The notes below the pieces were generated by a model, which made no database searches, had not been told where the DNA came from, and saw only the letters and a program-made list of their open reading frames with translations. The position numbers and the translations under genes were made by a program. Below, piece by piece: positions 6,138 through 22,466 of a stretch of DNA of 64,000 nucleotides. Within the stretch, counting starts at the first letter, position 1; each line of letters opens with the position of its first letter. Origin of the DNA: Patescibacteria group bacterium. Its GTDB lineage: Bacteria > Patescibacteriota > WWE3 > UBA101185 > UBA10185. The stretch is from the NCBI GenBank assembly GCA_026004595.1, contig BPJL01000002.1, forward strand, positions 1,431-65,430. The letters run 5' to 3'.

Positions 6138-6209
6138 ATGGACAAGACTCTAGGTTATTGTTGTAGTTATGGGAAATAATGGCGGTTGAGGGGTGATATA
6201 ATGCAGGGA

Positions 6210-8018
6210 ATGTCATTTGATTTTATACCAAAAAAAGAGTGGAATTTTGGGCTTTTATATGATAGGTACGATAAAAAAGCCCTAGAAGAGGAGCTGGAGG
6301 ACATAAAGAAGCGAAATCTGGAGTTTGCGGCGAAATGGCGGGATAGAAAAGATTATTTAGAAAATCCGGAAATATTGAAGCAGGCGCTGGATGAACTTGA
6401 GCAGATAGAGGCTACTATAGGAACCTCTGGAAAGCCCGGTTATTATTATTGGCTTAAGTACCAGCTTGATCAGCAGAATACCGAAATCAAGGCGGAGCTT
6501 GGAAAAATTGAGGATTTGGGAACTTACTTGGAGAATGAGCTTGAGTTTTTTAGACAGAATATTTCAAGAATCCCTGTAGAGAAACAGCAGATGTTTTTAG
6601 ATTATCCGGGCTTGGCAGAGTATAGGCACATGTTGGAAAGAATGTTTATCGCGGCAAAGTACTTGCTAAGCGAGCCCGAGGAAAAGATATTGAATTTGGT
6701 ATCAAAGACTGCTCACGGAAACTGGGTGGAGATGATTTCTGATTTTCTATCCAGAGAAGAAAGAAAAGTATTAAATGAGGATGGCTCGGAATCGGTAAAG
6801 AATTTTTCTGAAATTTTAGACACTATAAATAGTATAAATAAAAAGGTTCGGGATTCGGCGGCAGAAGCTTTGAATGACATTTTTGCCAAGGTAGCGCCTG
6901 TGGCGGAGTATGAGCTAAATTCGGTTTTGCATAATAAAAAGGTATCGGATGAGTTGAGGGGATTTAAGAGGCCTGATGAGTCAAGGCATGTTTCGGATGA
7001 TATTGACAGCGAGGTTGTTGACAGTTTGATTGAGGCAGTCAGTTCAAGGTTTGACATTTCCCAAAGATATTACAAGCTAAAGGCCAAACTGCTGGGCGTG
7101 GAAAAACTCCAATATCATGAGAGAAACGTGGATTTTCAAAAACCGGATGTGAAGTATGATTTTGAGAAATCGGCGGGGTTGATTTCCAAAGTGTTCGCGG
7201 GGCTGGACGAGGAGTTTAGGGGGATTTTTGAGAATTTCTTGAAAGAGGGTAGGATTGATGTCCACCCTAAAAAAGGAAAAGACTCGGGGGCTTTTTGCGT
7301 GCACATGGAGAAAGACCTGCCGGTTTTTGTGATGTTGAATCATACAGGAAGACTTAACGATGTGACGACATTGGCTCATGAGATGGGGCATGCGATTAAT
7401 TTTGAGCTGATGAAGAAGAAGCAGAACGCTTTGAATTGCGGAACTTTTACCTGCACGGCTGAAGTTGCAAGCACTTTCATGGAGGATTTTGTTTTGGATG
7501 AATTGGAAAAGGATGTTGATGACGAGGGAAGATTGGCGATTTTGATGGAAAGATTAAATGGTGATATATCGTCAATTCAGAGGCAGGTTGCATGCTACAA
7601 CTTTGAGAAGGATCTTCATACTATATATAGGAGTGAGGGGTATTTGTCTTTGGAGAAGATCGGCGGGTTATTTTTAAAGCATATGGGGGCTTATTTGGGT
7701 GAAGCGGTTGAGCTTTCAAAGGGTGCCGAAAACTGGTGGGTTTATTGGAGCCACATCCGAAGCTATTTTTATGTTTATTCTTACGCGTCGGGTGTAATGA
7801 TCTCAAAAAGTCTGAAAAAAATGGTTGAGGACGATTCGGCTTTTGTGAAAAAGGTAAAGAGGTTTTTGGAATTGGGGACTTCTGTATCTCCCAGGGATGC
7901 TTTTGGTGAGCTGGGGGTGGACATTGGGGAAAAGAGTTTTTGGATGAAGGGGCTTGAAGAGTTGGATAGGATGTTGAGTGAAGCCGAGGGGTTGGCGGGG
8001 AGGTTGGGGAGGGGTTGA
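6210..8018 (+). CDS. pepF: Oligoendopeptidase F (M3B metallopeptidase)
   Basis: HEMGHAINFE zinc motif; ~600 aa with M3 family layout. Start taken at ATG 6210, 7 nt after the extended -10 TGATATAAT (6194-6202). The ORF track begins at 6186. Confidence 0.85.
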   Translation: MSFDFIPKKEWNFGLLYDRYDKKALEEELEDIKKRNLEFAAKWRDRKDYLENPEILKQALDELEQIEATIGTSGKPGYYYWLKYQLDQQNTEIKAELGKIEDLGTYLENELEFFRQNISRIPVEKQQMFLDYPGLAEYRHMLERMFIAAKYLLSEPEEKILNLVSKTAHGNWVEMISDFLSREERKVLNEDGSESVKNFSEILDTINSINKKVRDSAAEALNDIFAKVAPVAEYELNSVLHNKKVSDELRGFKRPDESRHVSDDIDSEVVDSLIEAVSSRFDISQRYYKLKAKLLGVEKLQYHERNVDFQKPDVKYDFEKSAGLISKVFAGLDEEFRGIFENFLKEGRIDVHPKKGKDSGAFCVHMEKDLPVFVMLNHTGRLNDVTTLAHEMGHAINFELMKKKQNALNCGTFTCTAEVASTFMEDFVLDELEKDVDDEGRLAILMERLNGDISSIQRQVACYNFEKDLHTIYRSEGYLSLEKIGGLFLKHMGAYLGEAVELSKGAENWWVYWSHIRSYFYVYSYASGVMISKSLKKMVEDDSAFVKKVKRFLELGTSVSPRDAFGELGVDIGEKSFWMKGLEELDRMLSEAEGLAGRLGRG

Positions 8019-8221
8019 GAATAGCTCACGCCGCACATTTTGTGAAGTATCCTATAGGAAAAAAAGCCACGACCTATAATTTATTTGACAATTAGATGAA
8101 TTATTAGTAAAAGGATATTAGGAATTTTGCCTATGCAGGCAAACTTCCCTGCCCCGATTGGCAGGCAAAATGCCACGAGAAAAATATACAGAAAATTGCA
8201 GAAAAATAGTTATGTGTTAAA

Positions 8222-8250
8222 AGCACGCTAGAGGCGTGTTTTTTTGTTGT
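8222..8250 (+). terminator. Rho-independent terminator hairpin CACGC-TAGAG-GCGTG followed by T7, in the pepF-giant gene spacer
   Basis: Perfect 5-bp stem followed by TTTTTTT. Confidence 0.35.
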
Positions 8251-8336
8251 AATTTTTTAGAGATTTTGGGATGGGGGGTAGCAAGAAGAGGGACAAGAAG
8301 TATTTGAAAATTTAATTAGTTAATTTTGAGAATGCA

Positions 8337-8468
8337 ATGAAATCTGCTGCGCAACATGGTCGCTTGCGGCAGACGGAGCAAGTAGCGAAACCGGTCTCTC
8401 TGTTGAGGTCGGTTTTTTTATCAGAAGAGTTCTGGCCAACTTTTCTGATGCACCGTAAAAAATTATGA
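8337..8468 (+). CDS. Candidate 43-aa upstream ORF. Its TGA stop overlaps the ATG of the giant surface-protein gene (ATGA)
   Basis: ATG 8337, in-frame stop at 8466-8468. Encodes MKSAAQHGRLRQTEQVAKPVSLLRSVFLSEEFWPTFLMHRKKL and contains a hairpin plus T-run. Speculative. Confidence 0.2.
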   Translation: MKSAAQHGRLRQTEQVAKPVSLLRSVFLSEEFWPTFLMHRKKL

Positions 8469-11400
8469 AGCTTAAAAAAACGATAACAAGAATAGCAAAG
8501 CTCAAAATAAAAAAAGATACGCGTAAGAGAATTTATCTGAACATCGCAATACTGTCGATGTTACTAAACAGTTTTTATCCGTTCCTTGCTTCCTATCAGT
8601 ATGTGTATGCCGAAGACGAGAAAGCGGTTGTTGAGGAAACTTCTTCAAGTGAAGAAGACTCTGACAGCGCAGAGGAATCCAGCGCGCCGGAGGAGACGGC
8701 TTCAGAAGAAGCTGACACGACTGAAGAGCCAGCTCCAGCAACAGAAGAGACCGATCCCGTAGACACGACCGAGTCTACCGGTGAAGTGTTAGGAATCTCA
8801 ACAGAAGACCAGAATGCTACCGAAGGTACCGATAGTGCCGTGGGAACCGAAGGTATTGCCGAGACACAGCCCGTTGCTGATGAAGCTCAATTGCCGGATA
8901 TTTTGCCGGATGGGGTGAGTGATTCTAGACCGGTTGGGAGTGAGCCCGCGTCTGAAATTATTCCTGTTACTGATACTACCAATCAGGATTTAGATCAACT
9001 TTCAGTTTATAGGCTGTCACATGTCGCTGATGGATTAGGGTCATGTCCGATGACAGGAGCTATTTGGACGACGGATAGCAATTGTACGGTAACTAATCAA
9101 AATATTTACTTTAGCAAATCAGAAGTTTACTTAAATGGCGGACCAGCTGGGAACGGAGGAGGCCCCGGCCTTCCTGACGGGAATTACTATGTAAGGGTTA
9201 CAGATCCAAGTGGTAAAGCTATTCTTGGTGAAAGCAATGAGCCCTCGGTTACTGTATCCGGGGGGGTTTTCGGAGAGTGCTATAAGCTTCAGAATGTAGT
9301 AGGCTATGATAGTACTAGTGGGTTTAAAGATACAACTAATCCAGGTGGTGAGTATAAAGTGTGGGTTAGCCCGGACAAAAATTTTAAGGATTGTTCTAAA
9401 ACCGATAATTTCAAAGTTTTGGAAAAAGGGTTCTGTGGCGACGGCAACGTGAACGCCCAAAACGAACAGTGCGACGACGGAAATAGAGATAATAATGACT
9501 ACTGCAGCAATACATGTCAATTTAACTCCGTTTGTATTCCAGATGTAAATATGCTCGTTAATGGAGATTTTGAAACTCCGGAAGTAACTAGTCATTATAA
9601 ATGGGATATATTCAATATGTATTCGCCAATGTTAGGTTGGAATGTGGTATGGAACGGAGGAAGTGCTAGTTATAGCGGACAAACAAGGCCTGAACCTGCA
9701 TACCTTGAATTACACAGAGATGTAAACGGGTGGAGTTCAGCATCTGGTAGTCAGTACGCTGAACTAGACACCGATTGGGACGGTCCTGGGAATCCGTTGA
9801 ATAACGAGCCTGCAACGGTAGGAATCTCTCAGGAAATTCCTTTAATAGACGGATATAAGTACAAAGTCAAATTTTCATATTCTCCAAGACCGGGGACAGA
9901 TGCTTCGAACAATGTCATGGATTTCGCCTGGGATGGGACAACAGTCGATACCTATTCCGGCGCTGGTGGAGGCAACACCTCTTGGACACCGAAATCTTAT
10001 GAGTTCGTTGCGGGCAAGACCGCTATTACAAATGTAGCTTTTGTCGAAAAAGGCACAGCGGATTCACTTGGGATGTTCTTGGATAATGTTAGCGTTACCT
10101 GTTTGGGGCCTGAAATAATACCTAAATGTGGCGACGGGTTGTTGAACCAGACGACGGAGGAATGTGATGGAACTTCTGGTGTCACATTAGGCAAGAACTT
10201 CTGTACATACAATTGTAAACTGGTACCAATTTACGATGGCGCCCACACGTGTTCTGAGGGGAAATATCCGGTTGCTTATAGCGGGCCTTTCACAATATCT
10301 AGTACCGATGGTGATGGGATAACCATTCCTGTGGTAGGCGGGAAAGAATATCTGTTTAAAGTATCCGGCACTTTTGTTCCAACCGGAGCTTCTGGTTACA
10401 TCTCTGACGCGGGGTATACATTGATAAACGGAGTACTTGCAAATCAGTATGGGATAAAGGGAACACCCCCTGATTTAGGTACCCACGCTTTACTTGGAAA
10501 TTTTGGGGAGGGTGTGGGTATAGTTGATTGGGGTAACTACAACAGCGAGCATATTTATACCAAAGCCTATACATTTGATAATAATGATAATAATTACGAT
10601 ATTAACTTCTTGATAGGTGATAGATACGATAATTGGTTTAATACAGCTTGGAACAACCAGGATGGAATGAAGGATAATTCCGGGAATCTTTCCTTAACGG
10701 TTTACGAATGTGCCACCCCTGTTTGTGGAAACGGACAGCGCGAGTTTGGGGAAGAGTGCGACGGAACCGATGGAATCAAATCAGGAGAAAACTTCTGTAC
10801 ACCCACCTGCAAACTGATACCCCTTTATGATGGGGAACACATGTGTGCGCCAGGAACTACACCGGTAAAAGTTGGCGATACCTATGTCATAGATTCTAAA
10901 GATAGTGATGGGGTTACAGTACCTCTAATTGGTGGCCAGGAATATCTTTTCAAGGTTTCGGGAACATATAAATTCGGTGCCCCCAATGATAATCGAGTTG
11001 CTGATGCAGCTTATGGCTCAGAGAACTCTTGGACTTCGGTAAGAACCGATCTTGGCATTTGGGGGAGCTCGCTTCGTGGGGTACTTTCACTGCTAGGGAA
11101 TTTGGGAATGGGTATTGGTGTAATAGAGTGGGATAACGACTCAATATTTGATCAAGACCACGCGTATGAAAAGGTATTTACTCCAGCGAGTGATATGTCA
11201 GCCCAATTTTTAATTAGTGATTGGTATAGTAACTGGTACGAAAATACATGCAAGAACCAAAGCTGTATGAGCGACAACAAGGGCTCTCTGAGTTTAGAGG
11301 TGTATGAGTGTCAGCCCTCTTCGAATGTTACCGTCTGTAAGTACGATAGTAAAAATAAACCGCTTACGGGATGGAACGTTTCTCTTAAAGGTGATTTGGT

Positions 11401-13552
11401 GGGTACGTTGAATGTATTGCCTAATGGTTCTGACTATAACTCAGCCGGGTTGCCAGTTGGTGATTATGTCTTGGAGGCGAGCGGTTACTATACGTACAGA
11501 CCCGGAACTGCTGGTGCGGAGTATACAGATGCCAACTACTCAAAGAGACACCCTAGTGATCCTGTCTACGGGGGACCTTACATACCTTGGGTCAATGTAA
11601 ATTCTTTCCCGTCCCCACACACAGGTTGGTTAGGTGTGATGGTTAACGGGGCTCCTACAAACTGGAGTGATTATTATGCATCAGATCACAAATATTTGCT
11701 TGGATTTGAGAATTATAGTGGCCCCTTCTCCTTTAAGATATTGGACGATGTCTATACTGACAATAGCGGAAGTATAACAGTTAATATATATAAAGGTTAC
11801 GCTGGGGTTACCGGAGAAGATGGTTGTGTAACATTTAAGGATGTCCCATTAGGTGACTATAGACTAGATGAAACACTCAAAGATGGTTGGGTGAATTTGA
11901 ATGAAACGAGAGGGAAACGGGTCAGTGTTGATGGACAAGAAGATCGTTTTACCCTCGTAAATGAAGATTTAAGTGATGTGGGTTTAGATATTTCAAAGAC
12001 GAATCTTAACTGGCCTGATCAACTGCAGAGTGGAGATATAGTAACGTACCAGATAACTATAAGAGCAGTAGGAGGCCCGCTATTCGATGTATTTGTTGTT
12101 GACCTCCCGCCTACAGGATTTGTGCCCGGTAACTTTCAGACATCTGCAAGTATAGAAGGACTTCCAACTTATGCCTCGCCCGGTAAATGGCACATTGGTG
12201 ATATGGAAGAAGGAGATGAAATAGTTCTTACATACGATGCTGTGGTGGGTTCAGATGTTGATCCGGGTGTCTATCCTGATCTAGCGTGGGCTTATGGGAG
12301 TAACATAATTGGAGGTAAAATAATCGCAAATTCAAAAGAGAGTGGTTTTGCTGTTAATAATGGGATTGTAAACGAAACTTTTGTTGGTACGCAAGTCGAG
12401 GTGGTCAGGGAAAATGAGTCGCCAAAAGTTAAAACCGAAGTAGACGAAAAGACCGTTGAAGAAGGAGTACTTGGTGCTTCTACCGCAAGACTCCCTGCCA
12501 CCGGTCAAAATGTAGTAATACTAATTTCTGTCTTAGCGCTTATGCTTACAGGTACTCTAATAATGGCTCTGTCAAGGAAAAAGAAAATTCTGAAGATACT
12601 TCCGATACTTTTTCTTGCAGCAGCTCTATATGGTGGAATGGATAGCGTATTAGCAGCCAATCTTTCTGTACGAATTGAGGATCCAAAGTCTCCTGTTAAC
12701 AGCCCGTTCCAGGTAACATTTGTTGTACTCAATGCCGATCCTAACGAGGGCGATTTGCACTATCAGTGTTGGATAGATGGTCCCACAAGCGGCTGGGAAA
12801 AGTTGGGTAGTGAAGGTACCTTGCCTAACGAAGGAGGTACAGATGTCTGTGATGTTACAGAATCTGTGTTGACAAGCGACGGTTTATACAGCATTAAAGT
12901 TGTTGTTGAAGGGGTTGAGTCTGCTACGGTATCAACAACATACGACAACACCCCACCCAGCAAACCCAAATACATCGAAGTTGACAGAAAATCCGCCTGC
13001 AAATACGAAATAGAATTCAAAACAGCCAACGACGGCCAAACATCATACGTTGAAGTGTACATGTCAGATGATAAAGAATTCACAGCAGGCTCCGGAAGCA
13101 GGATAAGAACCATAACGATAGGCCCCGACCAAAAATACAAGTTTACCGAAGAAGTTGCTGGAGATAAATGCGCCCACAGACAATACTTTGCCGTTCGCGC
13201 CTTTGATTCCGCAGGCAACGGGTCAAAGGTTGAAGCCGAAGAAGTGACAGACATTGAATACAAGACAATATATAAAGAAGGGACCGAAGAAGTAACCCAA
13301 GAAGCCTACGCCGGAGGAGCGGCTTCATCTATTGGCGCAGGAGCGGGTGAAGAAGGCGCCGAAGTAGTTACGTCAGAAGAAGAAATGCCTAGCGAAGAAG
13401 GAAGCATTTTGGGTGAGCAGGCCCAAGCGGAAACCGGAGCCGAAAAAGGATTCTTTGGCAAACTCATCTCAAGCCCCTGGACATGGATAATACTAATCTT
13501 GGCGCTCGGAATAATAACGATAAATGGAATCAGAAAGAGCAAGAAAGAATAA
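8465..13552 (+). CDS. Giant secreted cell-surface protein (1695 aa as read). Signal peptide, acidic S/T/E/D-rich linker, three CGDG/CGNG...ECDDGN cysteine-rich repeats (Myxococcus-type), two ~245-aa tandem modules, DUF11/CARDB-like region, and an LPATG sorting signal at residues ~1343-1376. An extra ~320-aa C-terminal module with its own hydrophobic leader and C-terminal TM may be a separate gene
   Basis: Single long ORF. Signal peptide MKLKK...YVYA. Repeated CxDGxxNxxxEQCDDGN motifs at ~9430, ~10130 and ~10730. LPATG at 12491-12505, then hydrophobic stretch and SRKKK. A 1-nt change in the A5/A4 tract at 12578-12587 would end the protein as ...SRKRKF*. Confidence 0.7.
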   Translation: MKLKKTITRIAKLKIKKDTRKRIYLNIAILSMLLNSFYPFLASYQYVYAEDEKAVVEETSSSEEDSDSAEESSAPEETASEEADTTEEPAPATEETDPVDTTESTGEVLGISTEDQNATEGTDSAVGTEGIAETQPVADEAQLPDILPDGVSDSRPVGSEPASEIIPVTDTTNQDLDQLSVYRLSHVADGLGSCPMTGAIWTTDSNCTVTNQNIYFSKSEVYLNGGPAGNGGGPGLPDGNYYVRVTDPSGKAILGESNEPSVTVSGGVFGECYKLQNVVGYDSTSGFKDTTNPGGEYKVWVSPDKNFKDCSKTDNFKVLEKGFCGDGNVNAQNEQCDDGNRDNNDYCSNTCQFNSVCIPDVNMLVNGDFETPEVTSHYKWDIFNMYSPMLGWNVVWNGGSASYSGQTRPEPAYLELHRDVNGWSSASGSQYAELDTDWDGPGNPLNNEPATVGISQEIPLIDGYKYKVKFSYSPRPGTDASNNVMDFAWDGTTVDTYSGAGGGNTSWTPKSYEFVAGKTAITNVAFVEKGTADSLGMFLDNVSVTCLGPEIIPKCGDGLLNQTTEECDGTSGVTLGKNFCTYNCKLVPIYDGAHTCSEGKYPVAYSGPFTISSTDGDGITIPVVGGKEYLFKVSGTFVPTGASGYISDAGYTLINGVLANQYGIKGTPPDLGTHALLGNFGEGVGIVDWGNYNSEHIYTKAYTFDNNDNNYDINFLIGDRYDNWFNTAWNNQDGMKDNSGNLSLTVYECATPVCGNGQREFGEECDGTDGIKSGENFCTPTCKLIPLYDGEHMCAPGTTPVKVGDTYVIDSKDSDGVTVPLIGGQEYLFKVSGTYKFGAPNDNRVADAAYGSENSWTSVRTDLGIWGSSLRGVLSLLGNLGMGIGVIEWDNDSIFDQDHAYEKVFTPASDMSAQFLISDWYSNWYENTCKNQSCMSDNKGSLSLEVYECQPSSNVTVCKYDSKNKPLTGWNVSLKGDLVGTLNVLPNGSDYNSAGLPVGDYVLEASGYYTYRPGTAGAEYTDANYSKRHPSDPVYGGPYIPWVNVNSFPSPHTGWLGVMVNGAPTNWSDYYASDHKYLLGFENYSGPFSFKILDDVYTDNSGSITVNIYKGYAGVTGEDGCVTFKDVPLGDYRLDETLKDGWVNLNETRGKRVSVDGQEDRFTLVNEDLSDVGLDISKTNLNWPDQLQSGDIVTYQITIRAVGGPLFDVFVVDLPPTGFVPGNFQTSASIEGLPTYASPGKWHIGDMEEGDEIVLTYDAVVGSDVDPGVYPDLAWAYGSNIIGGKIIANSKESGFAVNNGIVNETFVGTQVEVVRENESPKVKTEVDEKTVEEGVLGASTARLPATGQNVVILISVLALMLTGTLIMALSRKKKILKILPILFLAAALYGGMDSVLAANLSVRIEDPKSPVNSPFQVTFVVLNADPNEGDLHYQCWIDGPTSGWEKLGSEGTLPNEGGTDVCDVTESVLTSDGLYSIKVVVEGVESATVSTTYDNTPPSKPKYIEVDRKSACKYEIEFKTANDGQTSYVEVYMSDDKEFTAGSGSRIRTITIGPDQKYKFTEEVAGDKCAHRQYFAVRAFDSAGNGSKVEAEEVTDIEYKTIYKEGTEEVTQEAYAGGAASSIGAGAGEEGAEVVTSEEEMPSEEGSILGEQAQAETGAEKGFFGKLISSPWTWIILILALGIITINGIRKSKKE

Positions 13553-14207
13553 CAAAAAGAAGAAAACCCAAGCCCAACGAGGCCCAGTCCTTTACAGACT
13601 GGGTCTTGCTTTTGTTGCCCTATCTTTCGCGGCCCTGGTGATAATTCTTTATCCCGCAATCTCAAACGAACTTAAATACCGCTTTAACCCGCCCAAAGCC
13701 GACGCCGAAGTTTTCATTACTCCTAATTCGCACACTGAAAAGCATTACATAGTTGCCGCCGACCCCTATTTAAGCATTGTGATACCCAAAATCGGAGCCA
13801 ACGCTAAGATAATAAAAGATGTTAATCCTCAAGACAGCAAATCTTACCAAAAAGCCCTTACTCAAGGGGTAGCCCACGCCCTAGGCACGGCTCTTCCCGG
13901 CCAAACAGGAAACGTTTTTCTTTTTGCCCACTCTTCCGACAACATAATAAACGCAAACAGATATAATTCGGTGTTTTACCTTTTGAATAAAATGGAAAAA
14001 GGCGATAAAGTTTATCTCATTTTCAACCGCAGAAAATTCACCTATACGGTTACCGATACGAGAATTGTATCTGCCGAAGACGTTTCATATATGCAACCCC
14101 AATCAGAAACGCCAAAAGTTACCTTGATGACATGCTGGCCCGCGGGTACGACTCTAAAACGCTTAATCGTAGTGGCAGAAATATTACCAGAACAACCTAA
14201 ACTCTAA
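13524..14207 (+). CDS. srt: Sortase (transpeptidase), membrane-anchored
   Basis: N-terminal TM. Catalytic signatures LFAHSS (His), LMTCWP (TLxTC Cys) and KRLIV (Arg). Overlaps the end of the LPATG protein gene by 29 nt. Confidence 0.8.
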   Translation: MESERARKNNKKKKTQAQRGPVLYRLGLAFVALSFAALVIILYPAISNELKYRFNPPKADAEVFITPNSHTEKHYIVAADPYLSIVIPKIGANAKIIKDVNPQDSKSYQKALTQGVAHALGTALPGQTGNVFLFAHSSDNIINANRYNSVFYLLNKMEKGDKVYLIFNRRKFTYTVTDTRIVSAEDVSYMQPQSETPKVTLMTCWPAGTTLKRLIVVAEILPEQPKL

Positions 14208-14221
14208 AATCTAGACAAATA

Positions 14222-15535
14222 ATGTACTCAATATATAATCTGTCTATGCAATTAACAGATTTTGAATCTCCTCAAGCGCAATCAGGACAAGACCATGGTG
14301 AACCGACGGCTATAAGAGGGCGTCCTATAAGAATGCCTAAGACGGCGCAGACCCCGCAGATAAATGATTCGATCGGCAGTACATCTTCTGACGGTTTAAA
14401 TAATATGACTACATCTAAGAAAAAGAAAAAATTCGGCTTTTTCCTCTCCATATTTCTAGGTTTTATTATTGCAGCAGCCATAGGCGGAGTTTATTGGTAC
14501 ATAAAAAGTAATGAAGGCCCTCTAACCCCTGTCACCCCTGTTGGTAAAGGAGAAACAAAACCACAAGTGACACAAATAATGAACCCCCTGACTGGAAAAA
14601 TGTTTGCAGAAAATGCCGCAAACTGGGTTGATGATAGACCTTTTGGTGTAATGATGAATAACCATGTTGATGCCAGGCCGCAGTCAGGCCTGATCTACGC
14701 CGATATTGTGTATGAAGTGGTTGCAGAGGGCGGAATAACAAGATTTTTAACTTTCTACTACTCCAACACACCGGAAATAATAGGACCGGTGCGCAGCACT
14801 CGAGAATACTACCTTGTTTTGGTCAAAGAGCTAGGAGACGCGATGATAATGCATGACGGCTACTCGCCGCAGGCCTTATATGCCATAGACAACTGGCCTG
14901 TAAGAAGCCTTTTTAGGGGTGGAGCTACACTGCCTTCCGTTTGCGATGGGTGTGTTTGGAGAGATCAATCAAGAAATGTAGCTTACGAGCATACCGAATA
15001 CACAAACGGAGTAAAACTTAGAGAACTCGGAGATAGATTGGGTTGGCAAGGCAAAACCACAGTCAGGCCTTGGCTTTTCAAGGACGACCCAAACAAATAT
15101 GTCTCCGCACCCGAAGCTAAAGAAATCACCATAGATTACTGGTACCACGGAGATTACACAGGTCACTTTAAGTATGATCCGGTGTCAAACAAATATTTAA
15201 GATACACCGGAGTTGACGCCCAAGACCAACCAATTCCACACCTAGATCGGGAAACCCAAGAACAAGTTGCAGTTACCAACCTGATAGTTCAGTTTGCAGT
15301 AGAGTCAACCATTCCCGATGATGATAAAAGCCGCCTTAAGTACGAACTTCTAGGGAGCGGGAAGGCTATAGTGTTTGTGGATGGAAAAGTAATTGACGCT
15401 ACCTGGTCAAAAGCCGACAGAGATGATCGCACGATTTTCTACGATACTTCCGGTAAAGAGATAGAATTCAACAGAGGAAACTTTTGGATCGGCATTGTGC
15501 CTGACCGCAATGTTGATCAGGTAGTGTATAAGTAA
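14222..15535 (+). CDS. DUF3048-family membrane-anchored protein (YerB-like)
   Basis: N-terminal TM (FGFFLSIFLGFIIAAAIGGVYWYI). DUF3048-like core ADIVYEVVAEGGITRFLTFY. Confidence 0.65.
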   Translation: MYSIYNLSMQLTDFESPQAQSGQDHGEPTAIRGRPIRMPKTAQTPQINDSIGSTSSDGLNNMTTSKKKKKFGFFLSIFLGFIIAAAIGGVYWYIKSNEGPLTPVTPVGKGETKPQVTQIMNPLTGKMFAENAANWVDDRPFGVMMNNHVDARPQSGLIYADIVYEVVAEGGITRFLTFYYSNTPEIIGPVRSTREYYLVLVKELGDAMIMHDGYSPQALYAIDNWPVRSLFRGGATLPSVCDGCVWRDQSRNVAYEHTEYTNGVKLRELGDRLGWQGKTTVRPWLFKDDPNKYVSAPEAKEITIDYWYHGDYTGHFKYDPVSNKYLRYTGVDAQDQPIPHLDRETQEQVAVTNLIVQFAVESTIPDDDKSRLKYELLGSGKAIVFVDGKVIDATWSKADRDDRTIFYDTSGKEIEFNRGNFWIGIVPDRNVDQVVYK

Positions 15536-21467: not shown

Positions 21468-22466
21468 ATGACGATTTCAATCACCCGCAGAGCAATTGCG
21501 CATATCGTGAGATCTTTTGCCTATTTTCTGTGGACTATAGATTTTTGCGCCAGCTTCAAAACAATTTTCTATGTTTTATTTATGGTTTACGCAGGAATTC
21601 TTTTTGCGATCAGCCGGGCGGATCTGGGAGATGTAATGAATGGAGCTTTGATGTCCGTAAATTATATTCAGCCGGTTCAGACTTCTTACCAAAATATATA
21701 TCCCCTGAAGATTGGGGGGCAGGATCGGCCCAATATTTCTTCTATCGCTGCGGCCGTGTACGATAGGGGATCGGGAAAGATTTTATACAGCAAATCGCCT
21801 GACATAAGACTTGCTCCTGCATCAACAACCAAGTTGATGACAGCTCTTGTAGCTCTTGAACTTTATACTTCAGATGAGATTGTTACGGTTCCATACTTTT
21901 GCACTAATGTAGATTCCACCAAGGCCTGGCTTCCTGCAGAGGAAAAGTTCAAAGCCCAAGATCTTATAACCACTATGTTGATAGGTTCTGCCGGAGACGC
22001 CGCATGCGCTTTGGCTACATCCAAGGTTTCATATTCGGAGTTTGTGGGAAAGATGAATGAGAAGGCAAAAGAGCTTGGGATGAAAAATACTAATTTCGTA
22101 AATCCAATTGGGCTGGACGGATTCAAAGGTGTCCATTATTCTACCGTTTCGGACTTATACGCTTTGGCCTTGGTGTCTCTTTCTAATGATGTGGTGAAAA
22201 ATACGGTTTCAACAATAGAGTTCACTATAAAATCATTGTCCTCCGATTTCAGTTATAAAGTGACGAATACTAACAGGTTGTTATGGGAGATTCCCGGAAG
22301 CGTCGGTATAAAGACGGGAACCACTGTGGGCGCAGGTGAAGTATTAATGTACGAATGGAAAGACGACAAAAGGGACTTGGTGATAATAGTTATGGGAAGC
22401 GAGGACAGATTTAGAGACACAAAGATTTTGCTGGATTGGTCGTTGGAAAACTACGTTTGGGATTAA
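21468..22466 (+). CDS. dacA: D-alanyl-D-alanine carboxypeptidase (S11, PBP5/6-like)
   Basis: SxxK motif ASTTKLMTALVALE, SGD and KTG triads, N-terminal TM. Confidence 0.8.
   Translation: MTISITRRAIAHIVRSFAYFLWTIDFCASFKTIFYVLFMVYAGILFAISRADLGDVMNGALMSVNYIQPVQTSYQNIYPLKIGGQDRPNISSIAAAVYDRGSGKILYSKSPDIRLAPASTTKLMTALVALELYTSDEIVTVPYFCTNVDSTKAWLPAEEKFKAQDLITTMLIGSAGDAACALATSKVSYSEFVGKMNEKAKELGMKNTNFVNPIGLDGFKGVHYSTVSDLYALALVSLSNDVVKNTVSTIEFTIKSLSSDFSYKVTNTNRLLWEIPGSVGIKTGTTVGAGEVLMYEWKDDKRDLVIIVMGSEDRFRDTKILLDWSLENYVWD

Follow-up and report, generated by a model that had tools for sequence, protein, structure and literature searches.

We analysed a 64,000-nucleotide (nt) stretch of DNA from a Patescibacteria group bacterium of the WWE3 lineage (contig BPJL01000002.1; hereafter the window), in which a giant open reading frame (ORF) occupies positions 8465–13552 of the + strand. 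The ORF encodes a surface protein of 1695 residues, as an initial annotation of the window had proposed, and we conclude that it probably forms part of a riboswitch-controlled operon and that its product is probably a polyprotein, which would be cut to yield a multi-lectin adhesin anchored to the wall and an FN3 partner anchored in the membrane. Part 1 (residues 50–1346) would be a modular adhesin composed of an acidic spacer, Cys-rich repeats, a DUF642-like domain, three lectin-fold modules, SpaA/DUF11-type stalks, and an EEGVLGAST-LPATG end, and part 2 (residues 1398–1695) would be a membrane-anchored tandem-FN3 protein, which many species of the candidate phyla radiation (CPR) encode in a separate gene. 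The evidence comprises the domain map of the protein, its topology signals, fold matches, a riboswitch match with a competing hairpin, and a conserved gene order accompanied by gene fusion.

The giant ORF is real and non-chimeric. A homologue search found a full-length copy with 97% identity (P0001), and the P0001 gene is present with identical neighbours in four independent assemblies (one 768-kb JGI contig and three Logan assemblies); for this reason, an assembly chimera, which the initial annotation had named as a concern, can be set aside. The DNA flanking the giant gene is ~99% identical overall to that of the P0001 strain.

The sorting signal of the protein is internal. In the initial annotation, the LPATG motif was thought to complete the protein, but it is located at residues 1343–1347 (nt 12491–12505; 12455–12505 including the preceding EEGVLGAST motif) and is followed by 348 residues with three hydrophobic segments, which include a conserved second protein fused behind the signal. 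Signal peptides and transmembrane (TM) segments were assigned from hydropathy and the −3/−1 rule. TM1 is a 22-residue hydrophobic segment (residues 1348–1369) followed by SRKKK, and TM2, which is shorter than TM1, has the n/h/c layout of a signal peptide and ends with a VLA↓AN site; the two form a TM hairpin at 12506–12655. Downstream of the hairpin are the tandem FN3/Ig-like domains (12656–13294; residues 1398–1610, comprising ~210 structured residues), and then an acidic linker with an EEGSILGE motif, TM3 (residues 1666–1690), the basic tail RKSKKE, and the stop codon (13295–13552, as judged from hydropathy and alignment). The order of the segments obeys the positive-inside rule, which is predicted to place both large parts outside the cell. 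The features of a sorting substrate, namely an N-terminal signal peptide, LPATG, TM1, and SRKKK, are present, and the extreme C-terminal position is absent; the models for sorting signals scored below their cut-offs (PF00746, 16 versus 20; TIGR01167, 13.4 versus 15.9). No other ORF in the 64-kb window bears an LPXTG motif.

The same architecture was observed in many CPR homologues of 1500–2900 residues, in which an internal LPXTG motif is followed by two hydrophobic segments, ~300 residues, and a terminal TM segment. A search using only the tail as the query found stand-alone proteins of ~320 residues that start with ordinary signal peptides. These signal peptides align over TM2, and the mature starts coincide (e.g., SVLA↓ANLSVRIE and QVLA↓ANLSVRLE); the best explanation of the alignment appears to be that TM2 is the former signal peptide of the FN3 partner. 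When a profile of the structured region of the tail was compared with 1.84 billion cluster representatives, 603 proteins matched at E ≤ 1e-30, and the top matches were a mix of ~320-residue proteins and long proteins in which the match lies ~100 residues from the C-terminus. A local set contained 167 full-length tail matches (109 fused and 58 stand-alone). LPXTG (mostly LPATG) was found no more than 110 residues upstream of the tail module in 101 of the 109 fused homologues, and exactly two hydrophobic segments were found at the junction in 102 of them, while their passengers differ from one another. Because no Met is conserved at the junction in the alignment of the fused homologues, separate initiation of the FN3 part is unlikely. 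The nearest relatives of the tail (55–58% identity) come from genomes of candidate division WWE3, the complete RAAC2_WWE3_1 genome among them, and more distant relatives were found in Daviesbacteria, Shapirobacteria, Collierbacteria, Gottesmanbacteria, Roizmanbacteria, and other Patescibacteria.

AlphaFold predicted two beta-sandwich domains in the FN3 region (pLDDT ~90), and Foldseek matched the region with tandem FN3 pairs, which represent a generic fold. The FN3 tail has no dedicated Pfam or NCBIfam model; the searches yielded only weak Big_3_2 matches and MXAN_2561-family matches below the cut-off. There is no Lys among the nearly invariant positions of the FN3 module, and the Lys of a PKSP motif is missing in the closest relatives, so we dropped the idea that the partner, like a pilin, offers a conserved Lys as the acceptor.

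The tail module proved to be the middle member of a three-part cassette. We compared 84 loci (the window, 80 loci from a scan of one genome per species, and three from contig look-ups, including one that is also among the scanned loci), 83 of which come from related CPR genomes. The module is always flanked by a giant LPXTG protein on one side and a sortase gene on the other. In 45 of the 84 loci, including all seven WWE3 loci, it is joined to the giant ORF upstream, and in the other 39 it is encoded by a separate gene. The upstream ORF of the split loci usually has 1000–2700 residues and has a textbook sorting signal at its end (…EVLGASTELPATG followed by a TM segment and then a basic tail), in which VLGAST-LPATG directly precedes the TM segment. 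In many different lineages, the giant gene and the FN3 gene of the split loci commonly overlap by the same 8 nt; a single-base insertion or deletion would therefore convert the split form into the fused form, and such conversion may explain the 45-to-39 mixture. Examples of loci with the 8-nt overlap are L015, L016, L017, L018, L021, L028, L031, and L032 (junction at ~8000).

In the window, the sortase gene (13524–14207, + strand) overlaps the end of the giant ORF by 29 nt. Its product possesses the His, the Cys (in TLMTC), and the Arg and matches the Pfam family Sortase with an E value of 7e-27, but it did not reach the cut-off of any NCBIfam model for a sortase class. In 78 of the 84 loci, the sortase gene starts no more than 73 nt before or 160 nt after the module stop codon. 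From these comparisons, we conclude that the fusion is genuine and selected; that the genes are so strictly linked and so often fused speaks for an FN3 partner whose function is tied to anchoring. Previous studies reported that sortases are enriched in CPR and nearly universal in Microgenomates (PMC6744442) and predicted sorted proteins in WWE3 (PMC3812714). We found no description of the FN3 partner or an internal sorting signal in these two papers, and a literature search with the phrase "internal LPXTG" returned no paper. Many of the cassette loci reside in metagenome-assembled genome records titled "uncultured Gammaproteobacteria" (L016, L018, L029, L032–L034, L037, and others), and a few reside in records titled "Pseudomonadales" (listed with L040, L050, L053, and L057). 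The taxonomy of these records is probably a placeholder or an error, the gene content being typical of Patescibacteria.

A linear motif accompanies both parts of the protein. Its consensus is E-E-G-[ESQ]-V-L-G-[AE]-x-T, and an [IVL]LG motif was located 5–12 residues (mostly 7–8) before LPXTG in 98 of 100 family members. The motif appears again in the stalk of the FN3 partner, ~24 residues before TM3, in 152 of 163 tails, compared to 19 expected from shuffles. The copies read from the window sequence are located at 12455–12490, 13400–13425, and 8780–8803 (residues 106–113, GEVLGIST in the acidic linker), all on the + strand. The motif was also considered as a general N-terminal feature, but this idea was dropped (12 of 164 proteins versus 6.6 expected). 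The EEG-x-VLG motif may extend the recognition element of the sortase, mark the site of a release protease, or belong to the stalk.

The passenger carries a duplicated module whose predicted fold is that of a lectin. The initial annotation had described three Cys-rich repeats, two of which each precede a duplicated and diverged module of ~245 residues. The duplication was confirmed, but the size was not: the units at residues 553–750 and 752–949 are 42% identical (E value of 1e-49, with diagonals offset by 198–200 residues), and each consists of a Cys-rich repeat of ~33 residues and a module of ~165 residues. The duplication became visible by segment-against-segment comparison, the self-BLAST of the whole protein having given the identity match only. 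Module A (LecA/PA-IL-like; 10220–10714, residues 586–750) is flanked by Cys596 and Cys749, and module B (10814–11314, residues 784–950) belongs to the unit that is 42% identical to that of module A. A diverged third copy that the initial annotation had overlooked, module C (11387–11794, residues 975–1110), is nested in a SpaA domain and was detected with an E value of 1.8e-27 in an iterated profile search of the collected homologues; all three modules are on the + strand. In a local set of 113 proteins, 49 bear the module, with 88 copies in all. These copies either follow a Cys-rich repeat and have a Cys residue on each side, or sit inside a SpaA domain. The close relative P0002 has three Cys-flanked copies and one nested copy, compared to two and one, respectively, in the window protein.

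The structure prediction of one repeat and its module, a check that the initial annotation had suggested, gave a confident model and only matches of the LecA/PA-IL-type lectin fold. The AlphaFold model of residues 553–752, constructed using 24 sequences, showed a pLDDT of 90.8 and a pTM of 0.87. The nine best Foldseek matches in the PDB were all the N-terminal domain of EclA, PllA, or LecA (E values of 5e-5 to 6e-2; target TM-scores of 0.59–0.70). The top match was the EclA N-terminal domain (E value of 5e-5 and target TM-score of 0.70), PllA and LecA came next, and beyond these the scores fell to noise. LecA (PA-IL), PllA, and the EclA N-terminal domain are Ca2+-dependent galactose-binding lectins. 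The module model shares with them the terminal motif D...(D/N)NSGS-hydrophobic-x-V.

The giant protein and the 24 module sequences had no match to PA-IL (PF07828) at E ≤ 1, and the 24 module sequences matched no Pfam family at all. The module profile found only chance matches to EgtD among the PDB sequences, and a large homologue search with a lectin profile found two fragments only. The LecA sequence used for comparison is identical to that of PDB 1l7l. In hhalign, the profile of the Cys-flanked modules aligned with the single LecA sequence over 12 C-terminal columns (E value of 0.07), and the profile of the nested-type modules aligned with LecA and PllA over 108 columns, covering the whole lectin (E value of 1e-4 and probability of 58%), in a test that was chosen after the fold result. 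The alignment would set the invariant D and DN(S)G of the module over D100 and N107-N108-S-G of LecA, in which D100, N107, and N108 are Ca2+ ligands of the galactose site, and these positions are kept in all three module types. We regard the profile homology between the module and LecA/PllA as suggestive, not decisive. The module is best described, on the basis of the model, as a LecA-like lectin-fold domain, in which the metal and sugar site is possibly retained and which would be expected to bind a sugar. In comparison with LecA (121 residues, a free tetramer), the module (~165 residues) has extra loops and is embedded in a giant protein, two of its copies being flanked by Cys pairs and one being nested in SpaA.

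The giant ORF is preceded by a 446-nt spacer that contains a predicted riboswitch, which had gone unmentioned in the initial annotation and lies beyond the coordinates given there. The Rfam model of the cyclic di-GMP (c-di-GMP)-II riboswitch aptamer (RF01786) matched positions 8321–8405 of the + strand, ending 59 nt before the start codon, over model positions 1–84 of 84, with a score of 56.5 bits against a gathering score of 53.5 and an E value of 7.4e-10 for the whole window. This was the only Rfam match in the window besides a tRNA. A terminator-like hairpin at 8387–8423 (+ strand), followed by a U-run (U7), is a putative expression platform, and its 5' arm overlaps the 3' part of the aptamer. 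The hairpin has a 12-bp stem and a folding energy of −15.5 kcal/mol (z of −3.6), and none of 200 shuffles folded as well. As the terminator hairpin and the aptamer are mutually exclusive, ligand binding should favour read-through; the riboswitch would thus be an ON switch, as inferred from the structure, and would presumably respond to c-di-GMP. A second hairpin of 12–13 bp (AUCAGAAGAGUU...AACUUUUCUGAU; 8421–8450, + strand) is located between the terminator and the start codon, and the ATG at 8465 is not preceded by a visible Shine-Dalgarno-like sequence.

The riboswitch was also found in related loci. Rfam matches lie directly upstream of the giant gene in L008 (59.9 bits), L006 (55.0 bits), and L023 (67.0 bits), and a model built from the window and these three loci additionally found the riboswitch in L025 and L079. 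Thus, 5 of the 51 assessable related loci, in which the start of the giant gene is present on the available DNA, possess the riboswitch before the giant gene, including both assessable WWE3 loci. In the alignment of the six loci, the inner helix is 95.7% paired, and all eight inner pairs show compensatory changes on both sides. The covariation score was 0.461, compared to 0.194 in shuffles (0 of 500 reached it) and at most 0.16 with slid partners, for an alignment of six sequences fitted to the model; the outer part of P1 is poorly paired across the six loci. The alternative hairpin and U7 are also present in the WWE3 loci L006 and L008, and a related hairpin without the U-run is present in L023, L025, and L079. 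Among the literature that mentions c-di-GMP together with CPR lineages, we found no report of such signalling or regulation in them.

On the basis of these observations, we propose the following mechanism. The ligand-bound riboswitch would allow read-through past the overlapping terminator, and the adhesin, partner, and sortase would be switched on together. The N-terminus of the polyprotein would be exported by the Sec pathway, TM1 would halt the transfer, and TM2 would restart it, so that both ectodomains face outward. The hairpin that joins the two parts would consist of TM1 and SRKKK as the normal stop-transfer end of the sorting signal and of TM2 as the former signal peptide of part 2. 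The neighbouring sortase would cut LPAT↓G and link the adhesin to the wall, and signal peptidase would probably cut after VLA, so that the FN3 protein, anchored through TM3, would have the mature form of its stand-alone homologues.

Several points weigh against this mechanism. For the predicted cuts by the sortase and signal peptidase, the evidence is the conservation of motifs and homology. In a few family members, LPXTG is missing, and VLGAATG alone stands before the TM segment. The RF01786 score is only 3 bits above the threshold, and variant families of the clan to which this riboswitch belongs may bind other ligands. Furthermore, no ORF in the 64-kb window or in 1.17 Mb of related loci contained the GG[DE]EF motif in a regular-expression search, by which a diguanylate cyclase encoded nearby was rejected.

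Four alternatives to the cleaved polyprotein were considered. The protein might remain an uncut three-pass membrane protein, in which LPATG is a relic or unused, both ectodomains are tethered through the hairpin and TM3, and the sortase serves other substrates. The architecture can exist without the motif, given that the relatives P0005, P0006, P0013, P0036, and P0237 have lost LPXTG and keep the hairpin and module. Nevertheless, LPXTG is kept in 101 of the 109 fused homologues at a fixed distance from the VLG motif, the split loci end in the textbook sorting signal, the sortase gene is translationally linked in 78 of the 84 loci, and the giant ORF is the sole bearer of LPXTG in the window; we consider an uncut protein to be unlikely. 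A second alternative is that the sortase joins the adhesin not to peptidoglycan but to the FN3 partner, through the N-terminus created by signal-peptidase cleavage or a side chain, with excision of the hairpin, resulting in a membrane-anchored adhesin on an FN3 stalk; the same reaction would ligate the products of the split loci. The three members would then constitute a CPR-specific anchoring machine, switched by c-di-GMP in an organism that possibly does not make the signal. The strict linkage of the giant LPXTG, FN3, and sortase genes, the repeated fusion of the first two, the small predicted mature N-terminal residues (A, G, or S, then NLSVR), and the EEGxVLG motif common to the substrate and the stalk of the partner are all compatible with ligation. 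However, small +1 residues are expected at any signal-peptidase site, no conserved Lys is available in the FN3 module (that of PKSP being absent in the closest relatives), and at least one peptidoglycan-related gene is present, i.e., Peptidase_S11 in the locus of the 97%-identical strain, which corresponds to the window ORF at 21468–22466 by position and length. To our knowledge, a protein alpha-amine acceptor has not been reported for any natural sortase. Both the ligation and the machine built on it seem improbable to us.

The two remaining alternatives concern the passenger and the reading frame. The passenger may not be a host adhesin but a self-directed envelope or S-layer-like component or a polysaccharide-capturing nutrient scavenger, whose lectin-fold and DUF642-like modules bind the glycans of the cell's own wall or environmental polymers. 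The lectin fold is silent on the target, many CPR giant proteins of unassigned role contain DUF642-like and Cys-rich modules, and the cassette is conserved in housekeeping surroundings. On the other hand, the two ends of the protein are conserved and the binding modules are exchanged from species to species, as is usual for proteins that meet variable partners, and the control by a c-di-GMP riboswitch parallels that of known adhesins (PMC4591827). We consider a non-host role rather unlikely, and attachment to a host or episymbiont, as the initial annotation had suggested, is plausible from the domain content. It is hardly credible that the long ORF is an artefact or represents two genes, either merged by a frameshift or with the FN3 part translated from an internal ATG at 12563. 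The 8-nt overlap in the split loci is such that a single-base indel could merge the genes, and an in-frame Met (MALSRKKK) is present at residue 1367. The fused frame, however, was observed in four independent assemblies of the sister strain, in each of the seven WWE3 loci, and in a total of 45 loci; the junction Met is not conserved in other fused members; and no Shine-Dalgarno-like sequence precedes 12563.

The cleaved polyprotein can be compared with several known systems. In Clostridioides difficile, the sortase-substrate adhesins CD2831 and CD3246 are switched on through c-di-GMP-II riboswitches at high c-di-GMP (PMC4591827). As in that case, a class II c-di-GMP riboswitch here lies directly upstream of a sortase-substrate adhesin gene, with an ON-switch layout. 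CD2831 and CD3246 differ from the window protein in having a C-terminal (S/P)PXTG signal, collagen-binding-type domains, no fused partner, and a sortase encoded outside the operon. Their release by the protease ZmpI is without a demonstrated counterpart here, and the organism here is a CPR bacterium, for which no diguanylate cyclase was identified. Streptococcal Zmp proteases contain an LPXTG motif and two hydrophobic segments, the second of which has been proposed to be a signal peptide cut by signal peptidase (PMC3518915), and they are thus similar in their non-C-terminal LPXTG-TM-TM device. However, the device of the Zmp proteases is N-terminal with the large functional domain downstream, whereas here a 1300-residue passenger lies upstream and a conserved 300-residue FN3 protein, which also exists as a separate gene, lies downstream; the Zmp sequences are unrelated to the window protein.

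That sortases can have membrane-protein partners of this kind is shown by SafA of Actinobacteria (PMC9282373). Like SafA, the FN3 partner is a conserved membrane protein encoded beside a sortase, and the FPW of SafA may be compared with SPWTW before TM3 in the WWE3-type tails. SafA is a single small TM protein without ectodomains that has been experimentally shown to be a signal-peptidase antagonist, whereas the partner here has ~300 residues and two FN3 domains and lies outside the definition of SafA as a small single-TM protein that has an exoplasmic FPW and binds the TM domain of the sortase. No sequence similarity between the FN3 partner and SafA was found, and the likeness of SPWTW is loose; many proteins have a Trp at the membrane interface, and its presence is not specific. 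A SafA-like function of the FN3 partner, proposed by analogy, is only a lead. The best structural counterparts of the module, LecA, PllA, and the EclA N-terminal domain, are described above; unlike LecA, the module has no Pfam PA-IL match. With Gram-positive MSCRAMM/pilin-type LPXTG proteins, the giant protein shares a signal peptide, SpaA (above the cut-off) and DUF11 (near the cut-off) stalks, LPXTG, a TM segment, a basic tail, and an adjacent sortase, but it differs from them in its internal sorting signal, in a sortase that fits no NCBIfam class, and in EEGxVLGAST before LPXTG. The locus is a variation of known themes (sortase-anchored adhesins, adhesin genes controlled by c-di-GMP-II riboswitches, and non-terminal LPXTG devices) in a lineage in which none of them had been characterised.

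How the ultra-small CPR/Patescibacteria recognise, hold, and release their hosts is largely unknown, and work so far has centred on type IV pili. The locus offers three handles on this problem: a sortase-dependent surface protein whose binding modules have a lectin fold and whose middle part is exchanged from one species to another; a conserved partner that is tied to the CPR sortase and has no name yet, with at least 603 cluster representatives, whose repeated in-frame fusion behind an internal LPXTG points to an anchoring link; and a predicted second-messenger riboswitch ahead of the operon. All three can be tested in vitro without cultivating the organism.

The remaining domains of the passenger, all on the + strand, support its description as a giant modular adhesin-like surface protein in the initial annotation, together with the LecA/PA-IL-like modules, the sortase signal, and the sortase gene that follows. 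As had been stated there, the protein begins with a signal-peptide-like segment (8465–8611, residues 1–49), read from the sequence as a basic n-region and a hydrophobic core with a predicted cut after VYA (VYA↓ED), and continues with a low-complexity linker of ~150 residues rich in E, S, T, and D (8612–9034, residues 50–190; D+E 29%, S+T 24%, and K+R 2%), in which the single GEVLGIST motif is found. The linker is hypervariable between strains and a hotspot of divergence: 107 of the 206 differences from the sister strain L084 over 23.5 kb fall within 8500–9000, including four indels of 3–6 codons, compared to three differences in the remaining 4.5 kb of the giant gene. The hotspot may reflect slippage, recombination, or selection.

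The linker is followed by domain D1 (9035–9430, residues 191–322), which has no Pfam match and for which BLAST found homologous segments in 25 collected proteins. The three Myxococcus-type Cys-rich acidic repeats of the initial annotation (TIGR02232/DUF4215; 9431–9535, 10121–10219, and 10715–10813) were recovered by profile hidden Markov model (HMM) search, the NCBIfam model TIGR02232 (myxo_disulf_rpt) scoring 40.6 bits against a cut-off of 20.8 over three stretches; the Pfam model PF13948 (DUF4215) gave 19.1 bits, below its cut-off of 27. Between the first two repeats lies a divergent DUF642/choice-of-anchor-C-like beta-sandwich (9536–10120, residues 358–552), which matched PF04862 (DUF642) with an E value of 6.9e-5 and 23.1 bits, below the cut-off of 27, and TIGR04362 with 33.1 bits against a cut-off of 120; many relatives with a region homologous to residues 358–552 bear precomputed PF04862 matches. 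Cys-rich and DUF642-like modules are common in giant proteins of CPR whose role is unassigned.

The stalk includes a SpaA (prealbumin-like, PF17802) domain (11315–11959) split by module C. The intact protein matched PF17802 over profile positions 31–79 with 26.4 bits (gathering cut-off, 23.1). In silico removal of module C extended the match to positions 2–87 of 91 and raised the score to 30.1 bits, indicating that the SpaA domain is interrupted by the module. The next region had been called DUF11/CARDB-like. Its DUF11 part stands as a near-cut-off match (11960–12394, residues 1166–1310; PF01345, E value of 1.8e-4 and 22.3 versus 24.6 bits; TIGR01451, 18.9 versus 24), and the homologous region of relatives bears PF01345, but CARDB (PF07705) was ruled out, since the HMM matched neither the giant protein nor its segments. 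Among the WWE3 species, the first ~200 and the last ~580 residues are conserved at 38–48% identity, and the middle (residues 205–1115) is only partly kept in L006, with unrelated sequence taking its place in L005 and L008. The protein thus resembles a constant chassis for export and anchoring on which the binding modules can be exchanged.

The upstream genes include pepF and lysS, and the sortase gene is followed by DUF3048, an ArsR-like gene, secD, secF, and recJ. The base composition is flat around the giant gene, and synteny is retained in related strains. The proposal that the gene is typical accessory cargo was not supported: the flat composition, the housekeeping neighbours (lysS, pepF, secDF, and recJ), and the conserved synteny speak against accessory cargo or a mobile island, and the three-part cassette is conserved across CPR lineages. 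The M3 oligoendopeptidase F gene (6186–8018, + strand) is located directly upstream of the riboswitch on the same strand and has a terminator-like hairpin on its 3' side (8219–8243). Its position resembles that of zmpI beside CD2831 in C. difficile. The M3 peptidase has no signal peptide, and a role as a ZmpI-like protease releasing the adhesin therefore seems unlikely. On the 3' side of the sortase gene is a DUF3048 (YerB-like) gene (14222–15535, + strand). A DUF3048 gene follows the sortase gene also in the WWE3-type loci L004–L009, L011, and L027, and other CPR loci have none in this place; the cassette may include it as a fourth member specific to this lineage.

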